A stretch of 32,000 bases of DNA, taken from positions 77,517-109,516 of the forward strand of contig JAIXYT010000038.1 of assembly GCA_027490095.1 (NCBI GenBank), written 5' to 3'. The notes under the pieces were generated by a model. It was not told the origin of the DNA. It was given only the letters and a program-made list of their open reading frames with translations, and made no database searches. This DNA comes from Sphingomonadales bacterium (GTDB taxonomy: Bacteria; Pseudomonadota; Alphaproteobacteria; Sphingomonadales; Sphingomonadaceae). Shown piece by piece: positions 1,613 to 29,959 of this stretch; the stretch's first letter is position 1, and each line of letters starts with the position of its first letter. A program made the translations under genes and the position numbers.

Positions 1613-3187
1613 GTGACAGACATCCTCCCCATCCGCCGGGCGCTGCTTTCCGTTTCCGACAAGACCGGCCTTGTCGATTTCGCGCGCGCGCTTGCAGCCC
1701 ATGGCGCCGAGCTGCTGTCGACCGGCGGCACGGCAAAGGCCCTGCGCGAGGCGGGGCTGGTGGTGACCGACGTGTCGGACCACACGGGCTTTCCCGAGAT
1801 GATGGACGGCCGGGTGAAGACGCTGCACCCCAAGGTGCACGGCGGGCTGCTGGCACTGCGGGACGATGCCGGCCACCAGGCGAGTGCGCAGGCGCACGGG
1901 ATCGCGCCGATCGACATGGTGGTGATCAACCTCTACCCGTTCGAGGCGACGGTGGCGAAGGGTGCCCCGCGCCATGACATCATCGAGAACATCGATATCG
2001 GCGGGCCGTCTATGGTCCGTTCGGCTGCCAAGAACCACGCATTCGTGGCCTGCGTGACGGATGCGGCCGATTATGCGGCGCTGGCCGAGGAGCTTGCCGA
2101 CGGCGGGCTTTCGCTGGCGACGCGGCGGCGGCTGGCAGCCAAGGCCTTCCAGGCGACGGCTGCCTATGACGGGGCGATCGCCAGCTGGTTCGCCTTTGCC
2201 GACCAGGGAGAGCGCTTCCCGGCGGTTCTGCCGCTGACGGCGCGGCGGGTGACCGAGCTGCGCTATGGCGAGAACCCGCACCAGTCTGCTGCGCTTTACG
2301 CGGCGTCTGCCGTGCCGTCGGGGCTTGCCGGTGCCGAGCTGGTGCAGGGCAAGGCGCTGTCGTACAACAATATCGGCGACGCGGACGGGGCGCTGGCGCT
2401 GATCTCGGAGTTTCGGGACGCCGCGCCGACGGTTGCGATCATCAAGCATGCGAACCCCTGCGGGGTGGCGAGCGCCTCGACACTGGCAGAGGCCTATCGC
2501 GCGGCGAAGGCCTGCGATCCCGTCTCGGCCTTCGGCGGGATCATCGCACTGAACCGGCCGCTGGATGCGGAAACCGCCGCCGTCATCACCGAGCTGTTCA
2601 CCGAGGTGATAATTGCGCCGGGCGCCGACGAGGCGGCGAAGGCGGTTGTCGCGAAGAAGCCGAACCTGCGCCTGCTGCTGAGCCCGCTGCCCGATCCGGC
2701 GCGCACCGGTCTGGTGCTGAAGACGGTGGCCGGCGGTTTCCTGCTGCAGAGCCGGGACAACCAGACCATGGGCGAGCTGACCATCGTGACGAAGCGCCAG
2801 CCGAGCCCCCGGGAACTGGCCGACATGGCCTTTGCCTGGACGGTTGCGAAGCATGTGAAGTCGAACGCGATCGTCTATGCGAAGGACGGTGCGACGGCCG
2901 GCATCGGCGCCGGGCAGATGAGCCGGCTGGACAGCGCCCGGATCGCGGCCTGGAAGGCGCGCGATGCTGCGGAGGCCGCGGGCTGGGCCGAACCCCGCAC
3001 GATCGGCAGCGCAGTGGCGTCGGACGCCTTCTTCCCCTTTGCCGACGGGTTGCTGGCTGCGGCGGATGCCGGCGCGACCGCGGTGATCCAGCCCGGCGGC
3101 TCGATGCGCGACGCCGACGTGATCGCGGCTGCCGACGCGCGCGGCCTTGCAATGGCCTTCACCGGCCTTCGCCACTTCAACCACTAG
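1613..3187 (+). CDS. purH: bifunctional AICAR formyltransferase / IMP cyclohydrolase
   Basis: 524 aa with a GTG start. Unmistakable PurH N-terminus ([45 protein letters not shown]) and C-terminus ([19 protein letters not shown]). Confidence 0.97.
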
Positions 3188-3202
3188 GAGCCTTCGCGCA
3201 CC

Positions 3203-4084
3203 TTGCCCATCTTCCCACCCCACATCCGGGCCATGTTCTGGATGGTGCTGGCCTGCATTTCCTTTGCGGGCCTTTGGGTGATGATCCGGCTGGGGAGCGA
3301 GGAGCTGCACCCCTTTGCGCTGGTCGTGTGGCGGAACTTCCTGGGGCTCATGTGGCTGATGCCGATGGTTCTGCTGACGCCGGGCCTGTTGAAGACCGAC
3401 CGGCTGGGCGGCCACATGCGGCGCGCGACGTCGGGGGTGATCGCGACCTTCGCGACCTTCTATGCGGTCGCCAATGCGCCGATGGCGAACGTGCTGGCGA
3501 TCAACTACACGGCGCCGCTGTTCGCGACCATCGGGGCCGTGCTGTTCCTGGGGGAGCGGGTTCGCTGGGTGCGAGGGCTGGCGCTGGCGATGGGCTTCCT
3601 GGGCATGCTGCTGGTGCTGCGGCCCGGCAGCGCGGAGATGACGCCGGGGCTGTGGGCGGCCGTCATCTCGGCGATCACGACCGCCTTTTCCTATCTGGCG
3701 ATCAAGGCGCTGACCGGACACGACGATCCGCGGGCGATTGCCGTGTGGAGCTTCATCCTGACGACGCCGGTGTCGTTCCTGCTGGCATTGCCCTTCTGGA
3801 GCTGGCCGTCGGACCGGTTGTGGCCGATCCTGTTCGGGCTGGGGGCCTGTGCGGCGGCGGGGCAACTGGCGCTGAGCCGGGCGTTCAGCCTTGCCGAGGC
3901 GGGGGCCGTGCTGCCCTTCGACTTCGTGCGCTTCGGCCTCATCACGCTGGCCGGGATCCTGCTGTTCGGGGAGCGCTATGATGTGGCAACCATCGTCGGG
4001 GGCACGGTGATCCTGGCCTCCACCATCATCCTTGCGCTGAGGGAACGGGCGCTGGCGCGCGAGAGGGCGGGGCGGCGGGGCTGA
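3203..4084 (+). CDS. DMT-superfamily (EamA/RhaT-like) transporter
   Basis: About 10 hydrophobic helices in two EamA-like halves. The start is uncertain: TTG at 3203 or ATG at 3233 (MFWMVLACISF). Confidence 0.85.
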   Translation: MPIFPPHIRAMFWMVLACISFAGLWVMIRLGSEELHPFALVVWRNFLGLMWLMPMVLLTPGLLKTDRLGGHMRRATSGVIATFATFYAVANAPMANVLAINYTAPLFATIGAVLFLGERVRWVRGLALAMGFLGMLLVLRPGSAEMTPGLWAAVISAITTAFSYLAIKALTGHDDPRAIAVWSFILTTPVSFLLALPFWSWPSDRLWPILFGLGACAAAGQLALSRAFSLAEAGAVLPFDFVRFGLITLAGILLFGERYDVATIVGGTVILASTIILALRERALARERAGRRG

Positions 4085-4169
4085 AACCTCCCACTTTCGC
4101 CGATGGGATGGCTTGGCCGGGCGGGCCAAGGCTGCGCCCACATATCTCACCTTGCGGGAAGGGACTTCC

Positions 4170-4952
4170 ATGGAACTGAAGGGACTGTCGGCGGTCGTCA
4201 CGGGCGGCGCATCGGGCCTTGGCGCGGCGACTGCACGGGCGCTGGCGAAGGAGGGCGTGAAGGTCGCCATCTTCGACATGAACAGCGAAAAGGGCGAAGC
4301 GGTTGCGGCCGAGTTGGGCGGCGTCTTCTGCCATGTGAACGTGACCGACGAGGCCTCGGTTGACGCCGGCTTTGCGAAGGCGCGGGCGGCCATCGGGCAG
4401 GAGCGGATCCTGGTGAACTGCGCCGGCACCGGCAATGCGATCAAGACCGCCAGCCGTTCGAAGGAGACCGGCGAGATCAAGCATTTTCCGCTGGATGCCT
4501 TCAACATGATCATCCAGATCAACCTGGTCGGCACCTTCCGCTGCATCGCGAAGTCGGCCGCCGGCATGATGAGCCTGCCGCCGCTGGGCGATTTCGGCGA
4601 GCGGGGCGTGATCATCAACACGGCGAGCGTGGCGGCCGAGGACGGGCAGATCGGCCAGGCGGCCTATTCGGCGTCGAAGGGCGGGGTGGTCGGCATGACG
4701 CTGCCGATCGCGCGCGATCTTTCGAGCGAAGGCATCCGGGTGAACACCATCCTGCCCGGCATCTTCAACACGCCGCTGCTGCAGGCCGCGCCGCAGAATG
4801 TGAAGGACGCGCTGGGCGCGTCGGTGCCCTTCCCCAAGCGGCTGGGCAATCCGGAGGAATATGCGAGCCTGGCGCTGGAGATGTGCCGGAACAGCTATTT
4901 CAACGGCGAGGATGTGCGGCTGGACGGTTCGATCCGGATGGCGCCGCGCTGA
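4170..4952 (+). CDS. short-chain dehydrogenase/reductase, 3-hydroxyacyl-CoA dehydrogenase type-2-like
   Basis: ATG at 4170 is preceded by GGGAAGGGA. TGGASGLG cofactor motif, YSASKGG catalytic motif and a NGEDVRLDG tail typical of HSD17B10-like SDRs. The ORF-track start at 4113 lacks an RBS. Confidence 0.85.
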   Translation: MELKGLSAVVTGGASGLGAATARALAKEGVKVAIFDMNSEKGEAVAAELGGVFCHVNVTDEASVDAGFAKARAAIGQERILVNCAGTGNAIKTASRSKETGEIKHFPLDAFNMIIQINLVGTFRCIAKSAAGMMSLPPLGDFGERGVIINTASVAAEDGQIGQAAYSASKGGVVGMTLPIARDLSSEGIRVNTILPGIFNTPLLQAAPQNVKDALGASVPFPKRLGNPEEYASLALEMCRNSYFNGEDVRLDGSIRMAPR

Positions 4953-4971
4953 GGCCGACACGCTGAAGGGG

Positions 4972-5005
4972 AAAGGGCGGGGCTTGGGCCCCGCCCTTTT
5001 CTGTT
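4972..5005. terminator. bidirectional intrinsic terminator between the SDR and fasciclin genes
   Basis: Stem AAAGGGCGGGGC / GCCCCGCCCTTT (4972-4983 pairs with 4988-4999) with loop TTGG, followed by a T-rich run on the + strand and TTTCCCCTT on the - strand. It lies between convergent stops. Confidence 0.7.
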
Positions 5006-5616: not shown

Positions 5617-5907
5617 TCAGGCGCCGGCCAGGAGGGCGTCGATTGCCTTTGCGAGCTTGAGGTCGCGGGCGGAGAGGCCGCCTGCGTCGTGGGTGGTGAG
5701 GGCGATTTCGACCCGGTTGTACACGTTGAACCATTCGGGATGGTGGTCCTGCTGCTCGGCGAGCAGGGCGACGCGGGTCATGAAGGCGAAGGCTTCGGAG
5801 AAGTCCTTGAAGCGGAAGGTTCGCTTCAGGTGTTCGCCGTCGAGCGTCCAGTGGGGGAGGGTGGCTGCCAGTTGGCTGCGGGCGGCATCGTCCAGCTTCT
5901 CGACCAT
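5617..5907 (-). CDS. phhB: pterin-4-alpha-carbinolamine dehydratase
   Basis: 96 aa starting at the ATG at 5907, preceded by GGGGAAGG. DHHPEW motif and overall PCD pattern ([55 protein letters not shown]). The upstream part of the 219-aa ORF looks like a non-coding extension. Confidence 0.9.
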
Positions 5908-5934
5908 CGGCTTGCCTTCCCCTATCTCGGGCGG

Positions 5935-6327
5935 ATGGCCCGTTTCGCCCCCTCCTTGGCCGAGATCGAGTTGCTTGCGCAAGCGGCTGTCGAGCGGCTG
6001 CCCGAGCTGTTCCGCCAGCATCTTTCGCGCGTGATCCTGCGGGTGGAGGACTTCCCCGACGAGGAGGTTATGGCGGCGATGGAGCTGGAGAGCCCCTATG
6101 ACATCCTGGGCCTGTATTGGGGCCATCATGTGGGCGATCTGGCCGGGGAGATGACGGGCGCGCTGCCGCCGACGATCTTCCTGTACCGGCGGCCGCTGCT
6201 GGACGAATGGGCCAATGGCGAGGACAGCCTGGAGCATCTGGTGACGCATGTGCTGGTGCACGAGGTGGGGCATCATTTCGGGTTGAGTGATGCGGATATG
6301 GACGCCATCGAAGCGGGCCTCCGTTAG
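5935..6327 (+). CDS. small zinc metallopeptidase-family protein (DUF1025/zincin-like)
   Basis: 130 aa from the ATG at 5935. HEVGHH (HExxH) motif near the C-terminus and acidic DFPDEE and GLY segments typical of this family. Confidence 0.8.
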
Positions 6328-6403
6328 CGCGAAGCGCTAATCGGAGGACTCCGCGCAGATGCGGCCGGCGTGCGGCGGAGACTTCCGCCGACACGTCCGA
6401 CGA

Positions 6404-6436
6404 GCGGGCTTGCCCGCAATTTCTTGTTTTTTTGAC
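6404..6436 (+). terminator. intrinsic terminator downstream of the metallopeptidase gene
   Basis: GCGGG-CTTG-CCCGC hairpin (6404-6417) followed by AATTTCTTGTTTTTTT. Confidence 0.6.
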
Positions 6437-6505
6437 TTTCGAGCGGACTCGGCGGCTTTGCCGCCGGCCGCGCTTGCCGATATGGTTATCGATATATCTG
6501 AAATA

Positions 6506-6519
6506 GTTCCACGTGGAAC
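6506..6519. promoter_or_regulatory. perfect 14-bp palindrome GTTCCACGTGGAAC (operator-like site, binding protein unknown)
   Basis: Read directly from the sequence. GTTCC/GGAAC-type half-sites recur at 6566-6583 (GGAATGTTCCAACAGAAC). It lies in the AT-richer convergent spacer. Confidence 0.3.
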
Positions 6520-6589
6520 AATCCTATTCGCTTTGCAATCAACGTGTTGGTGCGATTCCGTGTAGGGAATGTTCCAACAGAACAGCTGG

Positions 6590-6610
6590 GCCCCGGGTCA
6601 AGCCCGGGGC
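6590..6610 (-). terminator. GC-rich hairpin, candidate terminator of the D-aminoacylase gene
   Basis: 8-bp stem GCCCCGGG/CCCGGGGC with a 5-nt loop. On the - strand it is followed by CCAGCTGTTCTGTTGG, a weak U tract. It sits about 130 nt past the stop at 6741. Confidence 0.35.
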
Positions 6611-6740
6611 GACGGCGGGTGCATTCTCTGCATCACATACATGACATGTCGCGTGCATTTGGCGTGCGTTCGGTGTGCACATTTTGCGCGTTTGGTGGCG
6701 GTTGGCCGCGGTGTCGTGCCGCTTTCTGCTCGGTTGGGCG

Positions 6741-8483
6741 CTATTCGGCGGCCATTGCCAGCGATGGCCTTGCCTGCGGGCCGCGGATCAGTCCGCCCGG
6801 CAACGCGCCTGTCATCTGCCCGTCGCGGAAGGTGACGACGCCGGACTTGATGGTGGCGACATAGCCGTCGGCCTTCTGGAGGAGGCGCTTGCCGCCTGCG
6901 GGAAGATCGAAGGCCATCCAGGGCTTGCCGAGTTTCAGGGCACCCAAGTCGATGAGATTGAGGTCGGCGAGCAGGCCGGGGGCGATCTGGCCGCGGTCGT
7001 TGAGGCCGTAGAGGCGGGCGGTGTCGCTGCACTGGCGCTTGATGGCGTTTTCGATGCTGATGGTGCCGCGCGTGCGGTCGCGGACCCAGTGCTGGAGGAG
7101 GAAGGTGGGGGAGGCGGCGTCGCAGATGGTGCCGCAGTGGGCGCCGCCGTCGGAGAGCGAGATGACGATGTCGTCGCGCTGGAGCAGGCCAGCCACGAAA
7201 TCGAGGTTGCCGTCGGCATAGTTGAGGATCGGGAAGTAGATGAAGCCGGCGCCGTCGTTGGCGCAGAGGAGATCATAGGCGTAATCGGCGGGGTCGCGGC
7301 CGGCGGCTGCCGCGCGGGCGGCGACGGTTTCGGCTTGCGTGGGCTCGTAGTTGAAGCCCTCGCCCATTTCGTAGTGGAGGCCGAAGCCTTGCGCGACGGC
7401 CATCAGCAGCATCTGGACGTCGGATTCGGGGTAGACGTCGGTTTCGGAGAGCATGCGGGCCTTGAAGGCCGGGTCCTTCAGTTTCGCCCATTGCTGAGCC
7501 CACGGGAGCTCGGCGATTTCGGCCCAGGCGGGCTTGAACAGGAAGGGGTGGACGGTGCCGCGCCAGGCCATGAGGATGCCGTTTCCGCGCAGCGCGATCT
7601 GCGCGACGATGTTGGCGCCGGCTGCGTTCCATTTGGCGGTTTCGGCCATCTGCTCTTCCCAGGGGAGTTCCTTGGCGATGGACTGCAGCATGGCGAAGGT
7701 GACGGGGAGGCCGGTTTCCTTGGAGAGGGCGCCCATCCAGCCGAACTCGTCCCACTCGCGGCGGAGATCGGAGGCCATTTCGAACACGCCGTGCCCGGCG
7801 CGGGCGACGGCGCGGCCGATGCCGATGAGCTCTTCCTTGGTGGCGGTGGTGCCGGGGACGAGCTCGCCGTCGATGGACTTGTGGAGGATGGTGCGCGACG
7901 TGGAGAAGCCGAGCGCGCCGGCCTTGAGGCCTTCCTCGACGATCGCCGACATCTGGGCGATCTCGTGTTCGGTCGGGTCCTCGTTGCGGGCGCCGCGTTC
8001 GCCCATGACATAGGCGCGCACGGCACCGTGGGGCACGTGGGTTGCGACGTCGATGGTGCGCGGGCGCTGTTCGAGGGCGTCGAGATATTCGGGGAAGGTT
8101 TCCCAGTTCCAGCTCATGCCTTCGGCGAGCGCGGTGCCGGGGATGTCCTCCACGCCTTCCATCAGGCCGATGAGCCACTGGTGCTTGTCGGGCTTGGCGG
8201 GCGCGAAGCCGACGCCGCAATTGCCCATGACGACGGTGGTGACGCCGTGCCAGCTGGAAGGCGCCATCTCGCTGTCCCAGGTGGCCTGGCCGTCGTAGTG
8301 GGTGTGGATGTCGACGAAGCCCGGGGTGACGTGCAAGCCCGTCGCGTCGATTTCGGTGCGGCCTTTTGCGGGCACCTCGCCGACGGCTGTGATGCGGTCG
8401 CCGTCGATCGCCACGTCGCCGACGAAGGCCGGGTTGCCGGTGCCGTCGACGATGGTTCCGTTGCGGATCACCAGATCATGCAT
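6741..8483 (-). CDS. N-acyl-D-amino-acid deacylase (D-aminoacylase) family amidohydrolase
   Basis: 580 aa. N-terminus [44 protein letters not shown], with the metal-binding HxH and a C-terminal beta-barrel segment typical of D-aminoacylases. Confidence 0.9.
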
Positions 8484-8562
8484 GTCACGTCTCCCTGGGG
8501 TGGGAGAGTAACAGCGGAGGCGGATTGCGAAACCGGTCGTTGAGAGAGGGTTTGCGGCCTCG

Positions 8563-9060
8563 TCAGGGCGCGTCGCCGAGGCCGACGTCGGCGAACACGA
8601 CGGAGACCTTGGTGGACGCGTCGGTCGAGCTGGCCATGACGAGCAGCAGTTTCTGCGCCTTCTTCGCGGACAGCATTCCGTTCCGGCGGTCTCCGGTGCG
8701 GGTGAGGGGCCCGAGGCGGCCCCTGCGGGCGCTGTCCTGGTAGAAGCGGAACACGGCGTCGACCGAATCCTGCGTGTTGAAGGTCACGCTGGTGGCATCG
8801 AAGCCGTCGCGCCGATCGTTCCGGATCATCGAGATGTCGGCGCCGGGATAGGCGGGGGCGAAGGCCGGGGCGGATTCGGGCCATTCCCTGGACCAGAAGT
8901 TGAAGCGCACGCCCTTGCGGCCCTTGTCGCCTTCGATCTGGACCCCGACGCCGTCGCCGTCGACGCTGACGGTCTGGGTGCCGCCGTCCGAGTGGGGCGT
9001 GCTCTTGCTGCAGGCGGACAGCAGAATGGCTGCGGCAAGCAGCAGTTCCGGCCGAACCAT
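8563..9060 (-). CDS. lipoprotein of unknown function
   Basis: 165 aa from the ATG at 9060, preceded by GAGGAGAAG. Lipobox LLSAC after a hydrophobic signal segment. No family recognised. Confidence 0.65.
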   Translation of the reverse strand: MVRPELLLAAAILLSACSKSTPHSDGGTQTVSVDGDGVGVQIEGDKGRKGVRFNFWSREWPESAPAFAPAYPGADISMIRNDRRDGFDATSVTFNTQDSVDAVFRFYQDSARRGRLGPLTRTGDRRNGMLSAKKAQKLLLVMASSTDASTKVSVVFADVGLGDAP

Positions 9061-9194
9061 GGCGCTTCTCCTCGAACACAACATCCTTACCGGCGTTAAC
9101 CTAACTGCCGCCGGCGCGCGGCACAATGGAAGCGATTGTAAATGAATGTGTTGTGGTGGAGAGGCGCGATCGGCCGGTTGCGGCTGGCCTGTCG

Positions 9195-10193
9195 CTAGCC
9201 TTCGATGCGGGCCATGTGGCGGGCGAGTTCGGCCTTCGAGTGGATCCCAAGCTTCTGGTAGATGGCGGTGACGTGGTTGCGCACGGTGAGCGGGCTGAGG
9301 TTGAGCCGTTCGGCGACGGTGGCGGAGGTGGCGCCTTCGGCGAAGAGGCGGGCGACCTTGAGTTCGGCGGGGGAGAGCGTTGCGAACGCGGGATCGGCGA
9401 TGCGCAGCAGGTGCCGGCCTTGCCCCCGCTTCAGGTTGAACGTCACGCTGCCGGCCTTCAGGTAATCGGCGCCATTGCCGACCAGCTTTACCAGCAGGTC
9501 GGGCAGCAGCGGCCCCAGCCAGTCGGGGAAAACCTGGTGAATGATCTGTCCGAAGGCCTGGTCGGAGGCGTGGACGTGGGCGCTGTCGTCGACGATGGCG
9601 AAGCCCCGTGTGTCGGCTTCGGCCGGCTGTGGCTTGCCGTTCGGGCCCGCAAAGGCGCTGAGCATCCGGCGCTTGCGGGCCGCCAGCAGGTGGGGGAAGC
9701 ACTGCTCCAGCAGATCGCAGTCGGCATCGGAATAGGCCGGCGATGCGGGACCGCGGAACAGGTAGATGAGTTCGCCGACGCGCGTCTTGGCGTCGAGGTC
9801 TGCAATGCCCAGGGTGTGGTCGATTCCGGCCGGCCGGCAGAACCCTTCGTGCAGGACGGCCTGGCGAGCGGCTTCTTCCGGGGTCAGGTCCTCGAGCCTG
9901 AGGGCCGTGCCGGGGCTGGCGGTTGCGGCTGCACGCAACCTGTCGTGCGATTGCCAGGCCCCATAGGCCACCAGCAGTTCGAGCGGGAGGTCGACGGCTG
10001 CGATTCCGAAGATCATCGGCGGGTCTTCGGCGCCCGAGCCCCAGATGGCGCAATCGAAGGGGATTGCGGTGCGCAAGCGCCCGAGCAGGGCTTCCTTCGT
10101 GGTCTCGACAGGTGCTGCGAAGGCGGCCTCGTGCAGGCCGAGCAGCAGACGACTGAGCGCTCCAGCAGGCATGCCGGTACAACCCCCAAGCAA
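9195..10193 (-). CDS. LuxR-family transcriptional regulator with an uncharacterised N-terminal sensor region
   Basis: C-terminal GerE/LuxR helix-turn-helix (LSPAELKVARLFAEGATSATVAERLNLSPLTVRNHVTAIYQKLGIHSKAEL). The N-terminal ~260 aa are not a receiver or a recognisable autoinducer-binding domain. The start may be the internal ATG at 10172. Confidence 0.8.
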   Translation of the reverse strand: MLGGCTGMPAGALSRLLLGLHEAAFAAPVETTKEALLGRLRTAIPFDCAIWGSGAEDPPMIFGIAAVDLPLELLVAYGAWQSHDRLRAAATASPGTALRLEDLTPEEAARQAVLHEGFCRPAGIDHTLGIADLDAKTRVGELIYLFRGPASPAYSDADCDLLEQCFPHLLAARKRRMLSAFAGPNGKPQPAEADTRGFAIVDDSAHVHASDQAFGQIIHQVFPDWLGPLLPDLLVKLVGNGADYLKAGSVTFNLKRGQGRHLLRIADPAFATLSPAELKVARLFAEGATSATVAERLNLSPLTVRNHVTAIYQKLGIHSKAELARHMARIEG

Positions 10194-15189: not shown

Positions 15190-15350
15190 GGTCGCCTCTG
15201 TCCTTTTTTTGTGCCGGTCGCCCGGGGGGCGCTGCGCATCCGCTCCTAGAACGGCGGAAACCGTGCGGCAAGCAGCCCATAAACTGCATGGCCGCCATGC
15301 CGTATCTGCAGGGCAAGCCCCCGGAACGAGGGCGCAGGAAGGACGAACGC

Positions 15351-16439
15351 ATGGAACAGGTTGCCGGACTGGAAGCGCTGGGCACTGCCGACGGGCCGCT
15401 GAACATGCGGGGCCTCGGCCATCCCGGCCTGATCCACTTCGATGCGATCCGCGACCTGTTCGTGGCGACGGGTCTTCAGCCTGAGCCGGAAAGCTATGAG
15501 CTGTTCTGGATGCACGTGACCGAGGCGGACCCTGCGCTCAGCCGGGCGCTGGAGCGCCTGCTGACCGAGGGGGCGCTGACCCCGGAAGGGGTGATCGAAC
15601 TCCGCCGGGTGCATCTGGGCGCGATCGCTGCGGCCGAAGTGCATGAGCTGGTGGAGGCGGCGCAGGAAAGCGCGAATGCGCTGGCGGACCGGCTGGAGCG
15701 GGGCCATGCCGACCTGAAGGCCTATGATGCCGCGATCGCCGCGCAGGACGAAGCGCTGGCGGCCAGCCGGACCGCCCAGGAGCTGGCCGACCTGATCCAG
15801 CGGTTGCGCCGGGCGAATGCCGCGATGATGGCGGCCAACCGGCGGCTGGAATCCGATATCGCGGCTGCGACCCTGGAGACCTCGCGTCTGCTGGACCGGC
15901 TGGAATCGGCCGAGCGTGCCGCGCGGACGGACCCGCTGACCGGCCTTCCGAACCGCCGCGGCCTGATGGATGCCCTGAAGAAGAATGTCGCGCGGGCGCT
16001 GGAAGAGGGGGTGCCGCTGACGGTCGGGCTTGCCGACATCGACCATTTCAAGCGCATCAACGACCAGTGGGGCCATTCGATCGGCGACGAGGTCCTGCGC
16101 TGCGTTGCCGCCCATCTGCAGGCCCATGCCCGCCGGACCGCCGGCGACCGGGGCATCGTGGGCCGCTATGGCGGCGAGGAGTTCCTTGTTGCCCTGCCCG
16201 GAATAGGGCTGTCGGCCGCGGCGGCTGCCATGGACAATGCCCGCGCGATCCTTGCGCGCCAGGTGCTGCGCAAGGCCGACGACGGCCAGTGCATGGGCCA
16301 TGTGAGCTTTTCGGCCGGAATTGCCCTGCTGCGGGCCGAGGACATGGTCGAGACGCTGGTCGATCGGGCCGATGCGGCTCTCTATGCGGCCAAGCGGGCC
16401 GGGCGCGACAGGGTATTGCCGGAAAAGCCGCAGCGCTGA
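15351..16439 (+). CDS. diguanylate cyclase (GGDEF domain) with a helical/coiled-coil N-terminal region
   Basis: ATG at 15351 after [33 protein letters not shown] and an RYGGEEF active site. The N-terminal ~190 aa are Ala/Leu/Glu-rich helices. Confidence 0.9.
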
Positions 16440-22941: not shown

Positions 22942-24372
22942 CTATTCCGCCGCCGCCCGGAGCGCCGGCGTCTCGAGCGCCCAGCCGCCGTCGGGGAAGA
23001 AGCCGCTGCCCTTGTCGCTGGAGAGTGCCGCCCAGGCTTCGCGGACGATCGCCCGGTCGAGCTCGCGCGTTGCCTCGGTCAGCTCGGCATAGGGCTTGAG
23101 GTCTGGGTGGATGCGCCGGGCGTTGTCGCGCGCCGGGCCCGGCCGCCAGCCGGACAGGGTGCGGTCCATCATCCAGCGCCGATGTTCCAGCTCGGCGAGG
23201 CGTTCGAGCAGATCCGGGTCTGAATCGAGGCTGGGCAGCGGGATTCCGCCTGTCGCGCTGGTGGGCGGCAGCGGCCGCCGAAGCCAGGCTGCGACGTCGA
23301 CTCCGGCGCTTGCGAGCTTGGCCGGCAGGTGCACGAGCTGGCGGCGGTTGGATTCGCGGAACTCCTCGGGCAGCCGCTCCCATTCGATGTTGGCGGGCGC
23401 GTCGGAGGGAGCTGTTCGCCGATAGGCCTCGTGGAACATCTGCGGCAGTGCATCGAAGTCCGGATCGAAGAGCCCGATTGCGGCCGCGAAGTCGGCGGTT
23501 GCGCCGAACTGCACAAGGCCTGCGACCTCGCCGTCCCTGGGCGCCTCGGGAAGCGCGCCGCCATGCACCAGCCGGGTGAAGATGGGGCCCATGGCCCAGC
23601 CTTCGCGGCGTGCGACGGCTTGCAGGGAGACTGCGAGCGCCATCGCCCTCAGGTCCTCGTCGATTGCGACATAGGCGAGCGTGAAGGGGTCTTCGGACTG
23701 GGCCAGCGCGAGCGCGTTCGTGGGCAGCAGCCGCACATCGGACACAAGCTCCGGGTCGATCAACTCGATGTCGACGGTTTCGGAGAGGCCGGGGCAGCGC
23801 TGGAACAGGCTGGCCCGGATCTCGCGGGCGCGCGGATCCACGATCGTCACCCGCGGCTTGCCGAGGAAGCTGGTGAGCGAGGAGAGCAGCAGGTCGGTCA
23901 GCACCGCCTCGCCGCCGCGGCCCAGCCCGAAGATCAGCGCATGGAGCCGCCGATGCCCGAGCCGGCGGGCGATGAGGAAGGGCGGAATGCGCCAGTGCAG
24001 CGCCCGGACCGACAGCTGGACCTGGCTGACGAAGCGGACGCCCTGGATATTCTCCAGCTCGTCCATCCGCTCGGCGAACCAGGCGTCGGCGAAGTTCATG
24101 ACGATCGGCAGCCGCGGCGACACCGCCCTGAGCGCGCGGACGGCGGCGACCTGCTGCACCTCGTTGCGGAAGGCGACGACCGCACGCGCGGCATGGTTCG
24201 CGGCGAAGCTTGTCGCAAGCGAAGGTTCCCACCGCTTGGGCACGATCAGCGCGCCCGGGATCGGCAGGGCCTCTTCCTCGGCATTGGAGATCCAGGTGAC
24301 GGTTGCCGCGCGGGCGGCGGCGGCCTCGGTCACGCCCCGGGCGACGCCATGGTCGCCGACCACCAGCAGATG
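22942..24372 (-). repeat. diverged direct repeat, copy A (paralogous coding DNA shared with 28481..29887)
   Basis: Residues 117-592 of paralogue A align collinearly with residues 25-492 of paralogue B. By hand count, 113 of 163 residues are identical over the C-terminal block. Nucleotide similarity is visible (for example GGGAAGAAGCCGCTGCC.., GATCGCCCGGTCGAGCTCGCG, CCAGCGNCGATGTTCCAGCTCGGC). Confidence 0.85.
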
Positions 24373-24720
24373 CCCGCGCCGATAGCGGCCGAACATCCGG
24401 CTGGCGTGGGTGGACAGGAGGGCGAGCACGGCCTTGGTCGCGGCCACCACGAAGGCGATCGCGCCCAGCACGCGGGCCGTATCGATCCGCCAGTCCTGGT
24501 TGTACCGTTCGGAGAAGGCATAGAGGTTGGACAGCGTGACCGCGTGCAGCGAATGGTAGAGCACGTCGAGCCAGGTGAGGTTCAGCGCCGCGGCCTGGGC
24601 ATGCCAGCCCCAGATCGCGAAGCCGATCGCGGCGATCGCAAGCGTCGGCAACAGCACAGTCAGGTTCAGGAATCGCCGCATGCCCTCGACTGCTTCCTTC
24701 AGGGTGAACGGCTGCCCCAT
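22942..24720 (-). CDS. membrane protein: 2-TM channel-like module, two RCK-N/TrkA-N-like Rossmann domains and C-terminal RyR-type repeats (paralogue A)
   Basis: 592 aa. Residues 1-110 read TM, then WLDVLYHSLHAVTLSNLY, then TM. Rossmann 1 is HLLVVGDHGVARG (degenerate) and Rossmann 2 is LHALIFGLGRGGEAVL (intact GxGxxG). The C-terminal LAELEHRRWMMDRTLSGWRPGPARDNARRIHPDLKPYAELTEATRELDRAIVREAW matches the RyR-domain signature. It lies 61 bp downstream of the SLC13 gene on the same strand. Confidence 0.8.
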   Translation of the reverse strand: MGQPFTLKEAVEGMRRFLNLTVLLPTLAIAAIGFAIWGWHAQAAALNLTWLDVLYHSLHAVTLSNLYAFSERYNQDWRIDTARVLGAIAFVVAATKAVLALLSTHASRMFGRYRRGHLLVVGDHGVARGVTEAAAARAATVTWISNAEEEALPIPGALIVPKRWEPSLATSFAANHAARAVVAFRNEVQQVAAVRALRAVSPRLPIVMNFADAWFAERMDELENIQGVRFVSQVQLSVRALHWRIPPFLIARRLGHRRLHALIFGLGRGGEAVLTDLLLSSLTSFLGKPRVTIVDPRAREIRASLFQRCPGLSETVDIELIDPELVSDVRLLPTNALALAQSEDPFTLAYVAIDEDLRAMALAVSLQAVARREGWAMGPIFTRLVHGGALPEAPRDGEVAGLVQFGATADFAAAIGLFDPDFDALPQMFHEAYRRTAPSDAPANIEWERLPEEFRESNRRQLVHLPAKLASAGVDVAAWLRRPLPPTSATGGIPLPSLDSDPDLLERLAELEHRRWMMDRTLSGWRPGPARDNARRIHPDLKPYAELTEATRELDRAIVREAWAALSSDKGSGFFPDGGWALETPALRAAAE

Positions 24721-24781: not shown

Positions 24782-26593
24782 CTAGAAGGGCCAGACCACC
24801 GGCACCCAGAAGACGCTGACCACGAAGAACATCGCCATCATGCAGATGCCGAGCTTCCAGTAGTCGCTGAACTTGTAGCCGCCCGGGCCCATGACCATCA
24901 GGTTCACCGGCGTTGCGATGGGCGTGAGGAAGGCGGCTGCGCAGGCGACGTTCACGCTCATCAGCACGGGCGTCACGTTCACGCCCATGGTGCCGGCCGC
25001 GAGCACGGCCACCGGGATCACGATGAGGGCGGTCGCGGTGTTGGAGATCACCTGGCCGAGCACGGCGGAAATCACGAACAGCCCGATCAGCAGCGCGCGC
25101 GGGCTGTTGTCGCCCAGGAGCTCAACCAGATTGTCGGCGAGAAGCTGGGCAGCGCCCGTCTGGAACATGGCGGTCGACAGCGGCATCATGGCGCCGACCA
25201 GGATGATCGTCGTCCAGTTGATCGCGCGGTAGGCCTCTTCCACCTTCAAGAGGCCCGTCAGGATCACGGCGCCCGCTGCGATCAGGCCGGCGATGGCGGG
25301 CTGCACCAGGTTGAAGGCCAGCATCGCAACCATGCCCAGGAGGATCAGGATGGCGGCCTTCGCGCCCAGCCCCAGCGGGACGGCCTGCTTGCGCACGACG
25401 GCCGGGCTGTCCACCACCAGCACCGCGGGATCCGCGAGGTGGGTTTCGAGCGCCTGCCAGCTGCCCTGCATCAGAAGCGTGTCGCCGGCCGCGAGCTTGT
25501 GGCTGCCGGGCCCCAGCGCCTCGCCTGCGCGTTCCACGGCCAGCACGACAAGGTCTCCGGAAGCGGCGGTCATCCCCGGGAAGGCGGTCTCTCCCACCAG
25601 CCGTGAGCGCGGCGGGATCACCACCTCGGCGAGGCCCGAATTGCGGTTGAACAGCGTGTCCCCGATGTCGCCATCGCCGCTGCCGAGCACGGCGAGATCG
25701 TGGCGCTCGGCAAAGGCCGCGACCATGTCAGCCGGCCCCGATACGATCAGGGAATGGCCGGGCGCTAGCGGGGTATCCGCCGCCACTGCCTCGCCCGCAT
25801 CGGTCTTGCCGCGCGCCAGCACCAGGCCGGGATAGGCCGACGTGTCGATATCTGCCGCTGTCTTGCCGACGCAGGCCGAGCCCTCGCGCAGCTTCAGCTG
25901 GAACCAGCGACCGCTCAGTCGATACTGCTCTGTCAGCGTGCGCGCGTGGGCGGAGAAGTCCGCCGGCAGCGACGGCCCCTGGGTGTAGGGCAGCAGCCTG
26001 GGCCCGAGAAAGTAGACGATGGCGATCCCGCCGATGACCAGCGGAAGGCCCGACCAGGCGAATTCGAAGAAGCCGAACGGCTCGCCGCCCGCATCCTGGA
26101 GCGCATCGTTCACGATGACGGCGATCGGGGTGCCCGAGAGGGTGAGCTTGGAGCCCGTGTGGGCCCCGAAGGCAAGCGGCATCAGCAGCTGGGAGGGCGC
26201 CGTGCCGGTGCGGATGGCCAGCACCACGACCACGGGCAGCAGCGCTGCGACCGCGCCGTTCACGCTGATGAGGGCGGTGAGCACGGCGACCATCAGCATC
26301 ATCAGCACCAGAAGCCTGCCGCGCCCTTCATCGCCGGCCCAGTCGATCAGCTTCTGCCCGGCCCAGGCGGTCACGCCCGCCGCCTCGAGGCCTGCCGACA
26401 CCACGAACAGGCTGGCGATGAAGATGATGGTCGGGTCGCCGAAGCCCGAGAACACCTCCTGCAGGGACAGAACGCCGGTCAGGTAGAGTGCCAGCGGAAC
26501 GAGCAGTGCGACAATCACGACAGGGAGCCTGTTCTGCACGAACAGGATCACGGCGCCCACGATGATCAGGAAGACGATGGTGATGTCGCTCAA
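24782..26593 (-). CDS. SLC13/DASS-family permease with two central TrkA-C (RCK_C) domains
   Basis: 603 aa. N- and C-terminal polytopic halves typical of SLC13/CitT-like permeases. The central soluble region holds two RCK_C-like repeats (..WFQLKLREGSACVGKTAADI..GHSLIVSG.. and ..LAEVVIPPRSRLVGETAF..GDTLLMQG..). Confidence 0.9.
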   Translation of the reverse strand: MSDITIVFLIIVGAVILFVQNRLPVVIVALLVPLALYLTGVLSLQEVFSGFGDPTIIFIASLFVVSAGLEAAGVTAWAGQKLIDWAGDEGRGRLLVLMMLMVAVLTALISVNGAVAALLPVVVVLAIRTGTAPSQLLMPLAFGAHTGSKLTLSGTPIAVIVNDALQDAGGEPFGFFEFAWSGLPLVIGGIAIVYFLGPRLLPYTQGPSLPADFSAHARTLTEQYRLSGRWFQLKLREGSACVGKTAADIDTSAYPGLVLARGKTDAGEAVAADTPLAPGHSLIVSGPADMVAAFAERHDLAVLGSGDGDIGDTLFNRNSGLAEVVIPPRSRLVGETAFPGMTAASGDLVVLAVERAGEALGPGSHKLAAGDTLLMQGSWQALETHLADPAVLVVDSPAVVRKQAVPLGLGAKAAILILLGMVAMLAFNLVQPAIAGLIAAGAVILTGLLKVEEAYRAINWTTIILVGAMMPLSTAMFQTGAAQLLADNLVELLGDNSPRALLIGLFVISAVLGQVISNTATALIVIPVAVLAAGTMGVNVTPVLMSVNVACAAAFLTPIATPVNLMVMGPGGYKFSDYWKLGICMMAMFFVVSVFWVPVVWPF

Positions 26594-28480: not shown

Positions 28481-29887
28481 CTAGCCCTTCGCTACGCGCT
28501 GCATGGCCCCGCCGTGGGGGAAGAAGCCGCTGCCCCGCGATGTGCCGAGCGTTTCCCAGGCCTCGCGCACGATCGCCCGGTCGAGCTCGCGGGTGTATTC
28601 GTCGAGCGCTTCGTAGGGGACGAGGTCGGGGTGGTGGCGCGCGTCGTTGTCGCGCACCGGGCCGTAGTGCCAGCCTGAAAGGCGCCGATCGACCATCCAG
28701 CGGCGATGTTCCAGCTCGGCCATCGTTTCCATCAGCGCGGGGTCGGCCTCGAGGTCGGGCAGCGGGATGCCGCCGGCCTCGTTGGTCACCGGGAGGGGTG
28801 TCCGGAGCCAGGCGGCGAGGTCCACCTTGGCCGTCAGCAGCTTCGCCGGCAGGTGCACGAGGAGGCGCCGGTTGGATTCGCGAAACTCTTCCGAAAGCTC
28901 TTCCCAGGGGCAGTTCGCCGGCGTGCCGGGGCGGGCGGTTCGCCGGTACGTTTCGTGGAACATGCGGGCGAGCAGGTCGATGTCGGGGTCGAACAGGCCG
29001 ATCGCTTCGGCGAAGTCGGCATTGGCCCCGAACATCAGCAGCTCGGCCGGTTCGTCGGTGACGGGAAGGCGCGGCAACTCGCCGCCGCCGGCCTGGCGCA
29101 CGAAGACCGGGCCCATCTGCCAGCGCTCCCGCGTGGCCAGCGCGTGGAAGGCGCGGGCCAGCGCCAGCGCGCGGACGTCGGCGTCGATCGACACATGGGC
29201 GAAGGTGAAGGGGTCTTCGGCGGCTGCGGCGAGCAGTGCGTCTGCAGGGATATGGCGTGGATCGTCGACGTCGCCCGCCTCGACGAAATGGATTTCGGCG
29301 GATTGGCCGATTTCCGGACAGCGGCGGAGCAGGTCGTCGCGCACCTCGGCAGCGCGGCGGTCGACGATCGTGATGCGCGGGGTGTCGAGATAGCCGGTCA
29401 GGCCGCAGAGCAGCAGGTCGGTCAGGATGCAGTCGCCGCCCCGGCCGAAGCCGAAGAGCAGGGCGTGGATGCGCGCATGGCCGAGGTTGCGGGCGATGAG
29501 CGGCGGCGGGTTGCGCCAGTGGAGGTCGCGCACGGCGAGCTGCACCTGGCTGACGAAGCGGACGTTCGAAAGCCCCGCCGTCTCGTTGCCGCGATCGGCG
29601 AACCAGCTGTCGGTGAAATTCACCATGATCGGCAGGGACGGGGCCCTGGCGCGCAGCGCCTCGACCGCCGGGATCTGCCGGGTCTCGTCGGCGAAGGCGA
29701 CAATTGCGCGTGCCGCGGTTGCCGCATGGCCGGCGTGCTGTGCGCCCCAGGGGGCCGCCACCAGCTCGACCCCGGGCATGGGGTTTGCCACCCTGCCGTT
29801 GGTGATCCAGGTGACGGGGGCATTGCGGCGCGCGGCGGCGGCAACCACGCCATCGGCAAGTGGATGGTCGCCGACCACCAGCAGATG
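28481..29887 (-). repeat. diverged direct repeat, copy B (paralogous to 22942..24372)
   Basis: See copy A. Same orientation, with the two copies 5.5 kb apart. Confidence 0.85.
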
Positions 29888-29959
29888 GTCGTGCAGCAGA
29901 TCCGGCGTGCCGGCACTGCCTGTGTCGGCCACGGTGTGGGAAACGCGCGTCACACCCAT
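28481..29959 (-). CDS. soluble paralogue B: two RCK-N-like Rossmann domains and RyR-type repeats, lacking the 2-TM module
   Basis: 492 aa. HLLVVGDHPLADG, IHALLFGFGRGGDCIL, and a C-terminal MAELEHRRWMVDRRLSGWHYGPVRDNDARHHPDLVPYEALDEYTRELDRAIVREAW. It lies 106 bp downstream of dnaJ on the same strand. Confidence 0.8.
   Translation of the reverse strand: MGVTRVSHTVADTGSAGTPDLLHDHLLVVGDHPLADGVVAAAARRNAPVTWITNGRVANPMPGVELVAAPWGAQHAGHAATAARAIVAFADETRQIPAVEALRARAPSLPIMVNFTDSWFADRGNETAGLSNVRFVSQVQLAVRDLHWRNPPPLIARNLGHARIHALLFGFGRGGDCILTDLLLCGLTGYLDTPRITIVDRRAAEVRDDLLRRCPEIGQSAEIHFVEAGDVDDPRHIPADALLAAAAEDPFTFAHVSIDADVRALALARAFHALATRERWQMGPVFVRQAGGGELPRLPVTDEPAELLMFGANADFAEAIGLFDPDIDLLARMFHETYRRTARPGTPANCPWEELSEEFRESNRRLLVHLPAKLLTAKVDLAAWLRTPLPVTNEAGGIPLPDLEADPALMETMAELEHRRWMVDRRLSGWHYGPVRDNDARHHPDLVPYEALDEYTRELDRAIVREAWETLGTSRGSGFFPHGGAMQRVAKG

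Follow-up and report, generated by a model that had tools for sequence, protein, structure and literature searches.

The stretch of DNA analyzed here, called the window below, comprises 32,000 nucleotides (about 69% GC) of a Sphingomonadales bacterium (GenBank assembly GCA_027490095.1, contig JAIXYT010000038.1, positions 77,517 to 109,516 of the forward strand). It is a housekeeping chromosomal region: a heparinase-like gene, purH, and genes for EamA, SDR, aconitase, GGDEF, MFS and DUF2157 proteins lead up to hslVU and to the gene that is the subject of this analysis, beyond which lie the genes for a CitMHS/SLC13 permease with a TrkA_C domain and for an AbgT protein, a paralog of the target, dnaJ and dnaK. 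The target gene is on the reverse strand and encodes a protein of 592 amino acids in which a pore-like module of 2 transmembrane helices (2TM), 2 Rossmann domains and a tandem pair of ryanodine receptor (RyR) repeats follow one another on a single chain. The GC content at its third codon positions (GC3) is 0.87, and the GC pattern across codon positions is that of a real gene. An initial annotation had described positions 22984-23472, which correspond to residues 417-579 of the target, as RyR repeats attached to an RCK scaffold. The features discussed here, with coordinates counted in the window and the evidence on which each is based, are the following.

22942..24720, reverse strand: whole target gene, 592 amino acids, with the 2TM pore-like module, Rossmann 1, Rossmann 2 and tandem RyR repeats (Repeat12-like); open reading frame (ORF) and AlphaFold2 model
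24385..24681, reverse strand: membrane module, residues 14-112; secondary structure of the models, Foldseek
23956..24372, reverse strand: Rossmann domain 1, residues ~117-255, RCK-N/TrkA_N-derived with a degenerate glycine motif; model, and TrkA_N in distant relatives
23476..23949, reverse strand: Rossmann domain 2, residues ~258-415, whose dinucleotide-binding fingerprint is intact; model and family conservation
23278..23451, reverse strand: RyR repeat A, residues ~424-481, degenerate; hhalign against repeat B, Foldseek
23020..23217, reverse strand: RyR repeat B, residues ~502-567, a canonical Pfam RyR domain; Pfam PF02026 and RyR matches in PDB
22984..23010, reverse strand: C-terminal tail motif GSGFFPDGG, residues 571-579; predicted disordered
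28481..29959, reverse strand: paralog without membrane module, 492 amino acids, with Rossmann 1, Rossmann 2 and tandem RyR repeats; directly downstream of dnaJ

The full-length AlphaFold2 model of the target, built on a 40-sequence alignment, has a mean predicted local distance difference test score (pLDDT) of 87.8 and a predicted template modeling score (pTM) of 0.81, with pLDDT below 50 from residue 576 on. A first transmembrane helix (TM1, residues 20-43) is followed in the model by a short helix (50-62), a low-confidence loop (63-76) and a long helix (77-112) that comprises the second transmembrane helix (TM2) and a linker. Downstream of TM2 come a six-stranded Rossmann domain (~117-255) with six beta-alpha units and then a helical crossover, a second Rossmann domain (~258-415), and the RyR module. 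When the full-length model is compared with PDB by Foldseek, the best match is the GsuK channel (4gx0, 4gx1, 4gx2 and 4gx5, E 4e-7, 508-591 aligned columns), in entries that include NAD- and ADP-bound forms. Further matches are full-length MthK (6oly, E 2e-5), the TrkA gating ring with ATP-gamma-S (4j9v, E 1e-4), Slo2.2 (5u76, E 4.4e-4), the DMI1 gating ring (7vm8, E 5e-4), and KtrA (5but, E 7.2e-4).

Judged from sequence comparison, the RyR match of the target lies far beyond chance. Pfam RyR (PF02026) matches residues 503-563 with an E value of 1.5e-12 (48 bits against a gathering cutoff of 27.4), and phmmer searches of PDB return RyR2 (E 6e-18, with three matched stretches per chain), the Repeat12 crystal constructs of RyR1 and RyR3 (E 5e-15 to 4e-12), and a “putative ryanodine receptor” from Bacteroides thetaiotaomicron (3nrt/6uag, E ~8e-7). 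The peptide on which the initial annotation had based its RyR assignment, LAELEHRRWMMDRTLSGWRPGPARDNARRIHPDLKPYAELTEATRELDRAIVREAW, is present at residues 508-563, and the Pfam and PDB matches bear the assignment out. The half-repeat that it had proposed upstream, MFHEAYRR...LPEEFRESNRRQLVHLPAKL (residues 428-469), is a real degenerate repeat: hhalign aligns residues 416-484 with residues 496-572 at an E value of 3.4e-5, pairing “PW..L.Ee.ReSNR” of repeat A with “HPdL.Py..L.e..r..DR” of repeat B, and the Foldseek match spans both repeats. The structural search against RyR repeats that had been proposed returns human RyR3 Repeat12 (~205 residues) with a probability of 1.00 over 169-186 columns (TM-score 0.46-0.54, normalized on the target), and the entries matched include complexes with AMP-PCP, ADP, ATP and dantrolene. 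Because both repeats align to RyR3 Repeat12, the C-terminal ~160 residues constitute a two-repeat, Repeat12-like module and not just one RyR repeat. Phage RyR-domain proteins in BFVD, one of them encoded by Olleya phage Harreka_1, also match this module by Foldseek. The tail GSGFFP.GG, said to be shared by the target and its paralog, is found in both as GSGFFP(D/H)GG, and beyond them only in their closest subclade.

Work from 2025-2026 has shown Repeat12 (also R12 or RY12) to be a clamp that binds ADP/ATP and dantrolene. In the RY12 clamp of RyR1, ATP or ADP stacks on W882, while R886, R897, H904, R1000 and others line the phosphate pocket; two ADP are bound selectively, and the clamp has been proposed to be an ATP:ADP sensor (PMC13642953). 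Crystal structures of nucleotide-bound R12 have also been reported (PMC12627627). On the phage side, RyDEP is a homodimer of single RyR repeats that binds 3'-cyclic ADP-ribose (3'cADPR) or ADP-ribose (ADPR) through H75, W78, H100 and D117 and cleaves 2'/3'cADPR; none of eight other phage homologs tested cleaves, six of the eight bind, and two that were characterized further have nanomolar affinity and act as sponges (PMC13232231). The initial annotation called the function of bacterial RyR domains “essentially unknown”, a view that these three studies have made partly outdated.

The ligand residues of both systems have counterparts in the target. In the phmmer alignment with RyR1, W882/R886/R897/H904 fall on W516/R520/R531/H538, and by motif position H75/W78/H100/D117 of RyDEP correspond to H513/W516/H538/D555. 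These putative ligand residues of repeat B (H513, W516, R520, R531, H538 and D555) are kept in 180-210 of the 213 family members compared, with individual counts of 210 for H513, 206 for W516, 202 for R520, 192 for H538 and 191 for D555. The motif of repeat A reads FH430EAY433RR...W447..L.EE.R.SN458R459...H464LPAKL, and its marked residues are kept in the same set (H430 in 203, Y433 in 202, W447 in 212, N458 in 198, R459 in 197 and H464 in 202). Since the RyDEP catalytic dyad H75/D117 has its motif counterparts in H513 and D555, which are kept in nearly all members, the target could be a membrane-bound enzyme whose RyR module acts as a RyDEP-like glycosidase on ADPR-type molecules. The dyad is, however, also present in animal RyRs and in phage homologs that do not cleave (PMC13232231). 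Because these non-cleaving, 2'/3'cADPR-binding homologs keep it, the dyad is not diagnostic of catalysis, and an RyR module joined to a pore-like module and an RCK scaffold is more readily understood as a sensor than as an enzyme, which leaves this explanation very improbable.

The 2 Rossmann domains that precede the RyR module had been described as RCK-N-like, one intact and one degenerate, and this description is supported. Rossmann 2 keeps the dinucleotide-binding fingerprint GLGRGG (G265-L-G267-R-G-G270, residues 265-270) followed by D295, with G265 conserved in 210/213 members, G267 in 169/213, G270 in 170/213 and D295 in 166/213. The paired Pfam scan that had been suggested was significant for RyR; TrkA_N, by contrast, has no match in the target at E<=1, although the fold nonetheless matches GsuK, MthK, TrkA and DMI1 by Foldseek. 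TrkA_N is instead recovered in distant full-length relatives, where a bona fide Pfam match occupies the first Rossmann position (E 5e-19 to 1e-12, including one at 4e-17), and the family profile retrieves these same TrkA_N-bearing proteins with full-length matches (profile positions ~10-555). For one relative, encoded at L060:8578-10368 (L numbers denote loci of family members), the RCK domains of TrkA, GsuK and Kch are matched in PDB by sequence, and this protein and other distant members also match the TrkA, Kch and Kef RCK models of NCBIfam below threshold. The homology to RCK is well supported by the full-length profile matches to TrkA_N proteins and the PDB and NCBIfam RCK matches of this relative.

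The N-terminal membrane module was modeled separately (residues 14-118, pLDDT 80.9) and searched against PDB with Foldseek. TM1, a re-entrant, pore-helix-like helix (50-62) and TM2 follow one another in the arrangement of K+ channels of the KcsA/MthK type. Tetrameric cation-channel pores make up 47 of the top 50 matches, and PsaBC transporter chains (7kyp) the other 3. The MthK pore (3ldd) is matched with a TM-score of 0.59 and a root-mean-square deviation (rmsd) of 3.8 Å over 79 columns (probability 0.99), and KcsA, NaK, Slo2.2, K2P and an AMPA receptor come after it. A pattern of TM1, “D.lYrsL.lF”, a short loop, “W.lE.AR” and TM2 is kept from Alphaproteobacteria to Actinomycetota, Bacteroidota, Verrucomicrobiota and Gemmatimonadota, and this deep conservation argues for a functional membrane module. 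On the predicted fold, the term “channel-like” used in the initial annotation can be accepted for the module, with the limits that the match to tetrameric pores is one of fold only and that no K+ filter is seen in 229 family sequences.

The identity of a canonical K+ channel was considered and rejected: TVGYG is absent across these 229 sequences, and none of them has a selectivity filter of the form [TS]xG[YFL]G in the filter region, which reads TLSNLYAFSE in the target. Because this region is neither TVGYG nor conserved, the pore would probably be a non-selective or divalent-permeable cation path rather than a K+-selective one. A precedent exists in CASTOR, a 2TM channel with an RCK ring that lacks TVGYG; its filter is predicted to be ADS(A)GNHA, and its selectivity is for Ca2+ (PMC6697748). 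The resemblance of the “LESGN” of distant clades to the CASTOR filter was noticed by eye, the motif being absent in the clade of the target, and is only a lead.

The explanation that we prefer, with confidence evenly balanced for and against, is that the target is a subunit of a ligand-gated, MthK/GsuK-type tetrameric channel-like protein gated by an adenine nucleotide or an ADPR-type ligand. In the arrangement that we infer, of which the tetrameric state, ion conduction, ligand identity and gating direction are all part, 4 subunits would place their 2TM/P-loop modules around a central pore, and the 8 RCK-N-type Rossmann lobes, 2 per chain, would form a cytoplasmic gating ring as in GsuK. Each chain would end in an intramolecular two-repeat RyR module, the counterpart of the animal Repeat12 (RY12) clamp, which most likely binds ADP/ATP, ADPR or an isomer of cADPR. 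The adenine would be stacked on W516, opposite Y433, with the phosphates contacting R520, R531 and H538, and Rossmann 2, where the GxGxxG...D site is kept, may bind a second nucleotide, for example NAD(H) or ATP/ADP. Closure of the clamp on its ligand would be relayed by the ring to TM2 and alter the ion flux, coupling the permeability of the membrane to the energy or nucleotide state of the cell.

Several observations weigh against this channel reading. The likeness to pores is one of fold, and the Foldseek E values of the isolated module are weak (0.1-1.3), as is expected because it is a helical piece of ~80 residues. Pfam Ion_trans_2 has no match in the target, and a profile of the membrane module built from 20 sequences finds none of the PDB channels at E<=10, so it is from the predicted fold that the channel assignment derives. 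The would-be filter loop differs between groups (target TLSNLYA, Caulobacterales DINNxAY, distant clades LESGN/A), and residues 63-76, which contain it, are modeled at low confidence, leaving conduction unproven. In the cytoplasmic part, the glycine motif of Rossmann 1 reads VVGDHGVARG (residues 120-129), the fingerprint thus being lost in the clade of the target; the RCK C-lobe TrkA_C has no Pfam match in the target, and the 2 Rossmann domains are directly consecutive in the model. Finally, the existence of a membrane-less paralog implies that the cytoplasmic part can function without a pore.

This paralog had been pointed out as a second copy, and it is one: it is 60% identical to the target over target residues 117-579, starting just before Rossmann 1, and has its own Pfam RyR match (E 3e-14, 53.5 bits). 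In Sandaracinobacter and relatives (L007, L008 and L013), the pore-less form has the same position by dnaK-dnaJ, within a conserved order dnaK, dnaJ, soluble paralog, AbgT, permease, hslUV; L008 and L013 have no membrane copy between the permease and hslU. In a neighbor-joining tree, the soluble forms all fall into one clade, whose sister group is the subclade of the target; this indicates a single duplication followed by loss of the pore module. That the soluble copy might be a truncated pseudogene was considered and rejected, since it lies ~106 nt from dnaJ and the same soluble form is found in several genomes.

A conserved soluble form invites the explanation that the target is a non-conducting, membrane-anchored nucleotide sensor or regulator, its 2TM module being a decayed channel remnant that serves for tethering and oligomerization, while the Rossmann and RyR part regulates another protein. 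TrkA and KtrA are soluble RCK proteins able to regulate separate transporters, and both are matched by the target in Foldseek. The regulated protein could be the adjacent TrkA_C-bearing CitMHS/SLC13 permease, whose gene ends 61 nt before the start codon of the target, or some generic partner; the latter would account for a working soluble paralog, which is conserved across the genus. The lack of a conserved filter, with TVGYG in 0/229 sequences, and the low confidence of the modeled filter loop are also what such a regulator would lead one to expect. Yet the pore-helix-like segment and the W..E.AR start of TM2 are kept from Alphaproteobacteria to Actinomycetota and Bacteroidota, as in a functional module and not a bare anchor, and the fold of the module specifically matches pore domains. 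The permease, moreover, is a neighbor only in the Sandaracinobacter group (5/80 loci), where it stands by the locus of the soluble paralog regardless of whether the membrane copy is there. We therefore regard the non-conducting regulator as rather unlikely.

The permease gene itself (24782-26593, reverse strand) has an internal TrkA_C domain and lies on the same strand as the target. The pair brings together an RCK C-lobe in the permease and RCK N-lobes without C-lobes in the target; with its restriction to the one group, this pairing may be coincidental. A scan for promoters and terminators around the target gene, including the gap between it and the permease, detected none.

The wider neighborhood of the gene, a survey of which the initial annotation had called for, was examined by tblastn of the window neighbors and by all-against-all clustering of ORFs from 83 loci. 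It revealed no conserved operon partner beyond lineage-level synteny, the largest cluster reaching 12/80 loci. No signal-generating neighbor is conserved in the loci of Sphingomonadales or Caulobacterales, PADLOC matches no defense family, and no TIR, cyclase, SLOG or mobile-element gene lies near the target within the window. The absence of a conserved neighbor in more than 80 loci fits a self-contained protein that is both sensor and effector. A GGDEF diguanylate cyclase gene in the window (15288-16439, forward strand, E 7e-41) adjoins the aconitase gene and is unrelated to the RyR protein.

In other lineages the family members have neighbors of their own. In Granulosicoccaceae and Bacteroidales, a gene for a protein with a domain that we call TGHR after its invariant motif “TGHR ... 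LAxGAD ... WDG..GGT” immediately precedes the RyR gene or shares 4 nt with it, a pairing absent from the window. The pairs, TGHR gene first, are these.

L009: 5710-7995 with 7992-9716
L012: 5578-7920 with 7923-9644
L011: 1-2259 with 2214-3980
L067: 7128-7751 with 7785-9506

In L010, from Pseudomonadales, a TGHR-type gene (2965-4983) lies on the opposite strand at a distance of ~3 kb. Profile comparison of the TGHR domain with PDB gives weak best matches, the nucleoside 2-deoxyribosyltransferase 7m5h (E 0.042) and YtoQ, and in gammaproteobacterial loci the domain is fused to a part with multiple transmembrane helices that has sub-threshold similarity to DUF4231 (SLATT-like). The TGHR and RyR gene pair looks like a two-gene, nucleotide-sensing membrane system.

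RyR repeats themselves recur in proteins of other formats. The family member of L060, from a Gemmatimonadota metagenome-assembled genome (MAG), adjoins a gene for an 873 amino acid protein (5886-8507) with an AAA-type P-loop region and RyR repeats (Pfam E 3e-9), and a 1109 amino acid protein of a Dehalococcoidia MAG (L076:8978-12307), likewise encoded beside a family member, combines an AAA-type P-loop, RyR (Pfam E 9e-19) and a C-terminal TGHR domain. Small stand-alone RyR proteins, encoded on the reverse strand, stand beside family members in Hirschia (L045:7395-7778, 127 amino acids, matching phrog_5154 at E 1e-35) and in a Hyphomonadaceae MAG (L072:712-1065, 117 amino acids), and resemble the phage RyDEP or sponge format. 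Some 1.5-5 kb downstream of a Caulobacterales member (L082:11266-15316) lie HTH_XRE, AAA_33 kinase-like and NUDIX genes and a fusion of an LDcluster4 domain, which is LOG/SLOG-like, with a methyltransferase; together these could constitute a nucleotide-centered system.

Such neighbors bear on the possibility that the protein is a conflict or anti-phage effector, in which the RyR clamp would sense an infection-induced, ADPR-derived signal (for example an isomer of cADPR) and the pore would open to depolarize the cell in an abortive infection. Phage RyR-domain proteins bind or cleave 2'/3'cADPR (PMC13232231), and a precedent exists in type X Thoeris, which has an “ion channel” effector whose signal is unknown (10.64898/2025.12.03.692087). 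The operonic TGHR...GAD...GGT proteins of other lineages (weakly like nucleoside 2-deoxyribosyltransferases or SLOG proteins, and sometimes fused to a DUF4231/SLATT-like part), the large AAA and RyR proteins and the small phage-like RyR proteins beside some members are consistent with such a role. The gene analyzed here, however, sits among housekeeping genes (purH, aconitase, hslVU, dnaKJ and transporters), is syntenic within its clade with an inheritance that looks vertical, and has neither a PADLOC match nor, in the loci of Sphingomonadales and Caulobacterales, a conserved signal-generating neighbor. For the target, an anti-phage role is therefore improbable. A bolder generalization, speculative and in our estimate unlikely, would have the whole 2TM-RCK-RCK-RyR family be prokaryotic cation channels, possibly Ca2+-permeable, that are gated by ADP or by ADPR-derived messengers through a Repeat12-type clamp and that in some lineages are wired to TGHR (SLOG- or nucleoside deoxyribosyltransferase-like) and SLATT-like partners as a conflict system.

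The family is large. The 85 close relatives returned by a word-indexed search bear no annotation beyond “RyR domain-containing protein”; the closest of them (P0001) is 95% identical to the target, and a look for the exact protein in public assemblies found no record of it. An exhaustive profile search of 1.84 billion cluster representatives (50%-identity clusters) matched 12,606 at E<=1e-3, 6,636 at E<=1e-10 and 2,070 at E<=1e-30, and most of the best 150 are near-full-length matches. Loci with family members come from Sandaracinobacter, Polymorphobacter, many Caulobacterales, Rhodobacterales and Granulosicoccaceae and, further off, from Actinomycetota, Bacteroidales and others; some members have 2 to 4 RyR domains. 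In 2 MAG contigs the homolog appears split or truncated (L065:7974-8687 and 9006-9677; L056:7917-8924), which could be due to frameshifting, pseudogene formation or misassembly.

Databases already show the architecture as a combination of TrkA_N and RyR, and prokaryotic RY12 proteins have been mentioned in passing as “putative tetrameric cation channels” (PMC13642953). Our literature search found no paper that characterizes the 2TM-RCK-RCK-RyR arrangement, and no dedicated NCBIfam model for it was found. It is thus an architecture already noticed and common, yet uncharacterized, and a variant of the RCK-gated channel. Because the family is large and has neither a curated model nor an experimental study, a single biochemical characterization would annotate thousands of proteins. 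The RyR repeats were until recently among the least understood parts of the ryanodine receptor, and a protein of 592 residues would be a tractable system in which to follow how the closing of an R12 clamp reaches the gate of a channel and to find the natural nucleotide ligand. If the pore conducts, it would add a new class of ligand and a new, non-TVGYG type of filter to RCK-gated channels; and if the reading as an R12-gated prokaryotic channel is true, nucleotide sensors of the R12 type would have been coupled to cation pores before eukaryotic ryanodine receptors arose.

A comparison with known systems shows which parts of the target are familiar and which are not. The RyR module shares with Repeat12 of RyR1, RyR2 and RyR3 the PF02026 domain, the placing of 2 tandem repeats in one clamp and the aligned ligand residues. 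It differs from the animal module in the strong degeneration of repeat A, in Y433 replacing the second tryptophan and in a shortened loop, and it sits on an RCK scaffold and a 2TM pore, whereas animal Repeat12 sits on the giant cytosolic shell of the RyR. With RyDEP and the phage sponges (PMC13232231) and with the small bacterial proteins 3nrt and 6uag, it has in common the domain family and the H, W, H and D positions. The RyDEP-type proteins, however, are small, soluble, phage-encoded homodimers of single repeats that act on Thoeris signals, while in the target an intramolecular tandem repeat forms the end of a chromosomal membrane protein.

Among RCK proteins, TrkA and KtrA likewise have tandem Rossmann RCK-N domains, which bind ATP, ADP or NADH, and their folds are matched by the target (4j9v, 4g65 and 5but); it is the soluble paralog that resembles their layout. 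In the target the TrkA_C lobes are missing, an RyR module has been added, the membrane module is fused on, and no TrkH or KtrB gene is adjacent. CASTOR, POLLUX and DMI1, the nuclear Ca2+ channels of plants, also combine a 2TM pore that lacks TVGYG with a tandem-RCK gating ring; no relation to CASTOR is detected at the level of sequence, and CASTOR is without an RyR domain and gated by Ca2+. GsuK, a multi-ligand-gated K+ channel of Geobacter sulfurreducens whose ring binds NAD+ and ADP, and MthK, whose pore is the best match of the isolated pore module, have a 2TM/P-loop pore followed by tandem RCK-type Rossmann domains on one chain, as does the target. The target departs from both in having no TVGYG, no RCK C-lobes, a degenerate first Rossmann motif and the extra RyR Repeat12-like module, and sequence similarity to them is detectable only in distant members of the family. 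Of these systems, GsuK and MthK, if an RY12 sensor were added to them, would come closest to the way in which the protein works.

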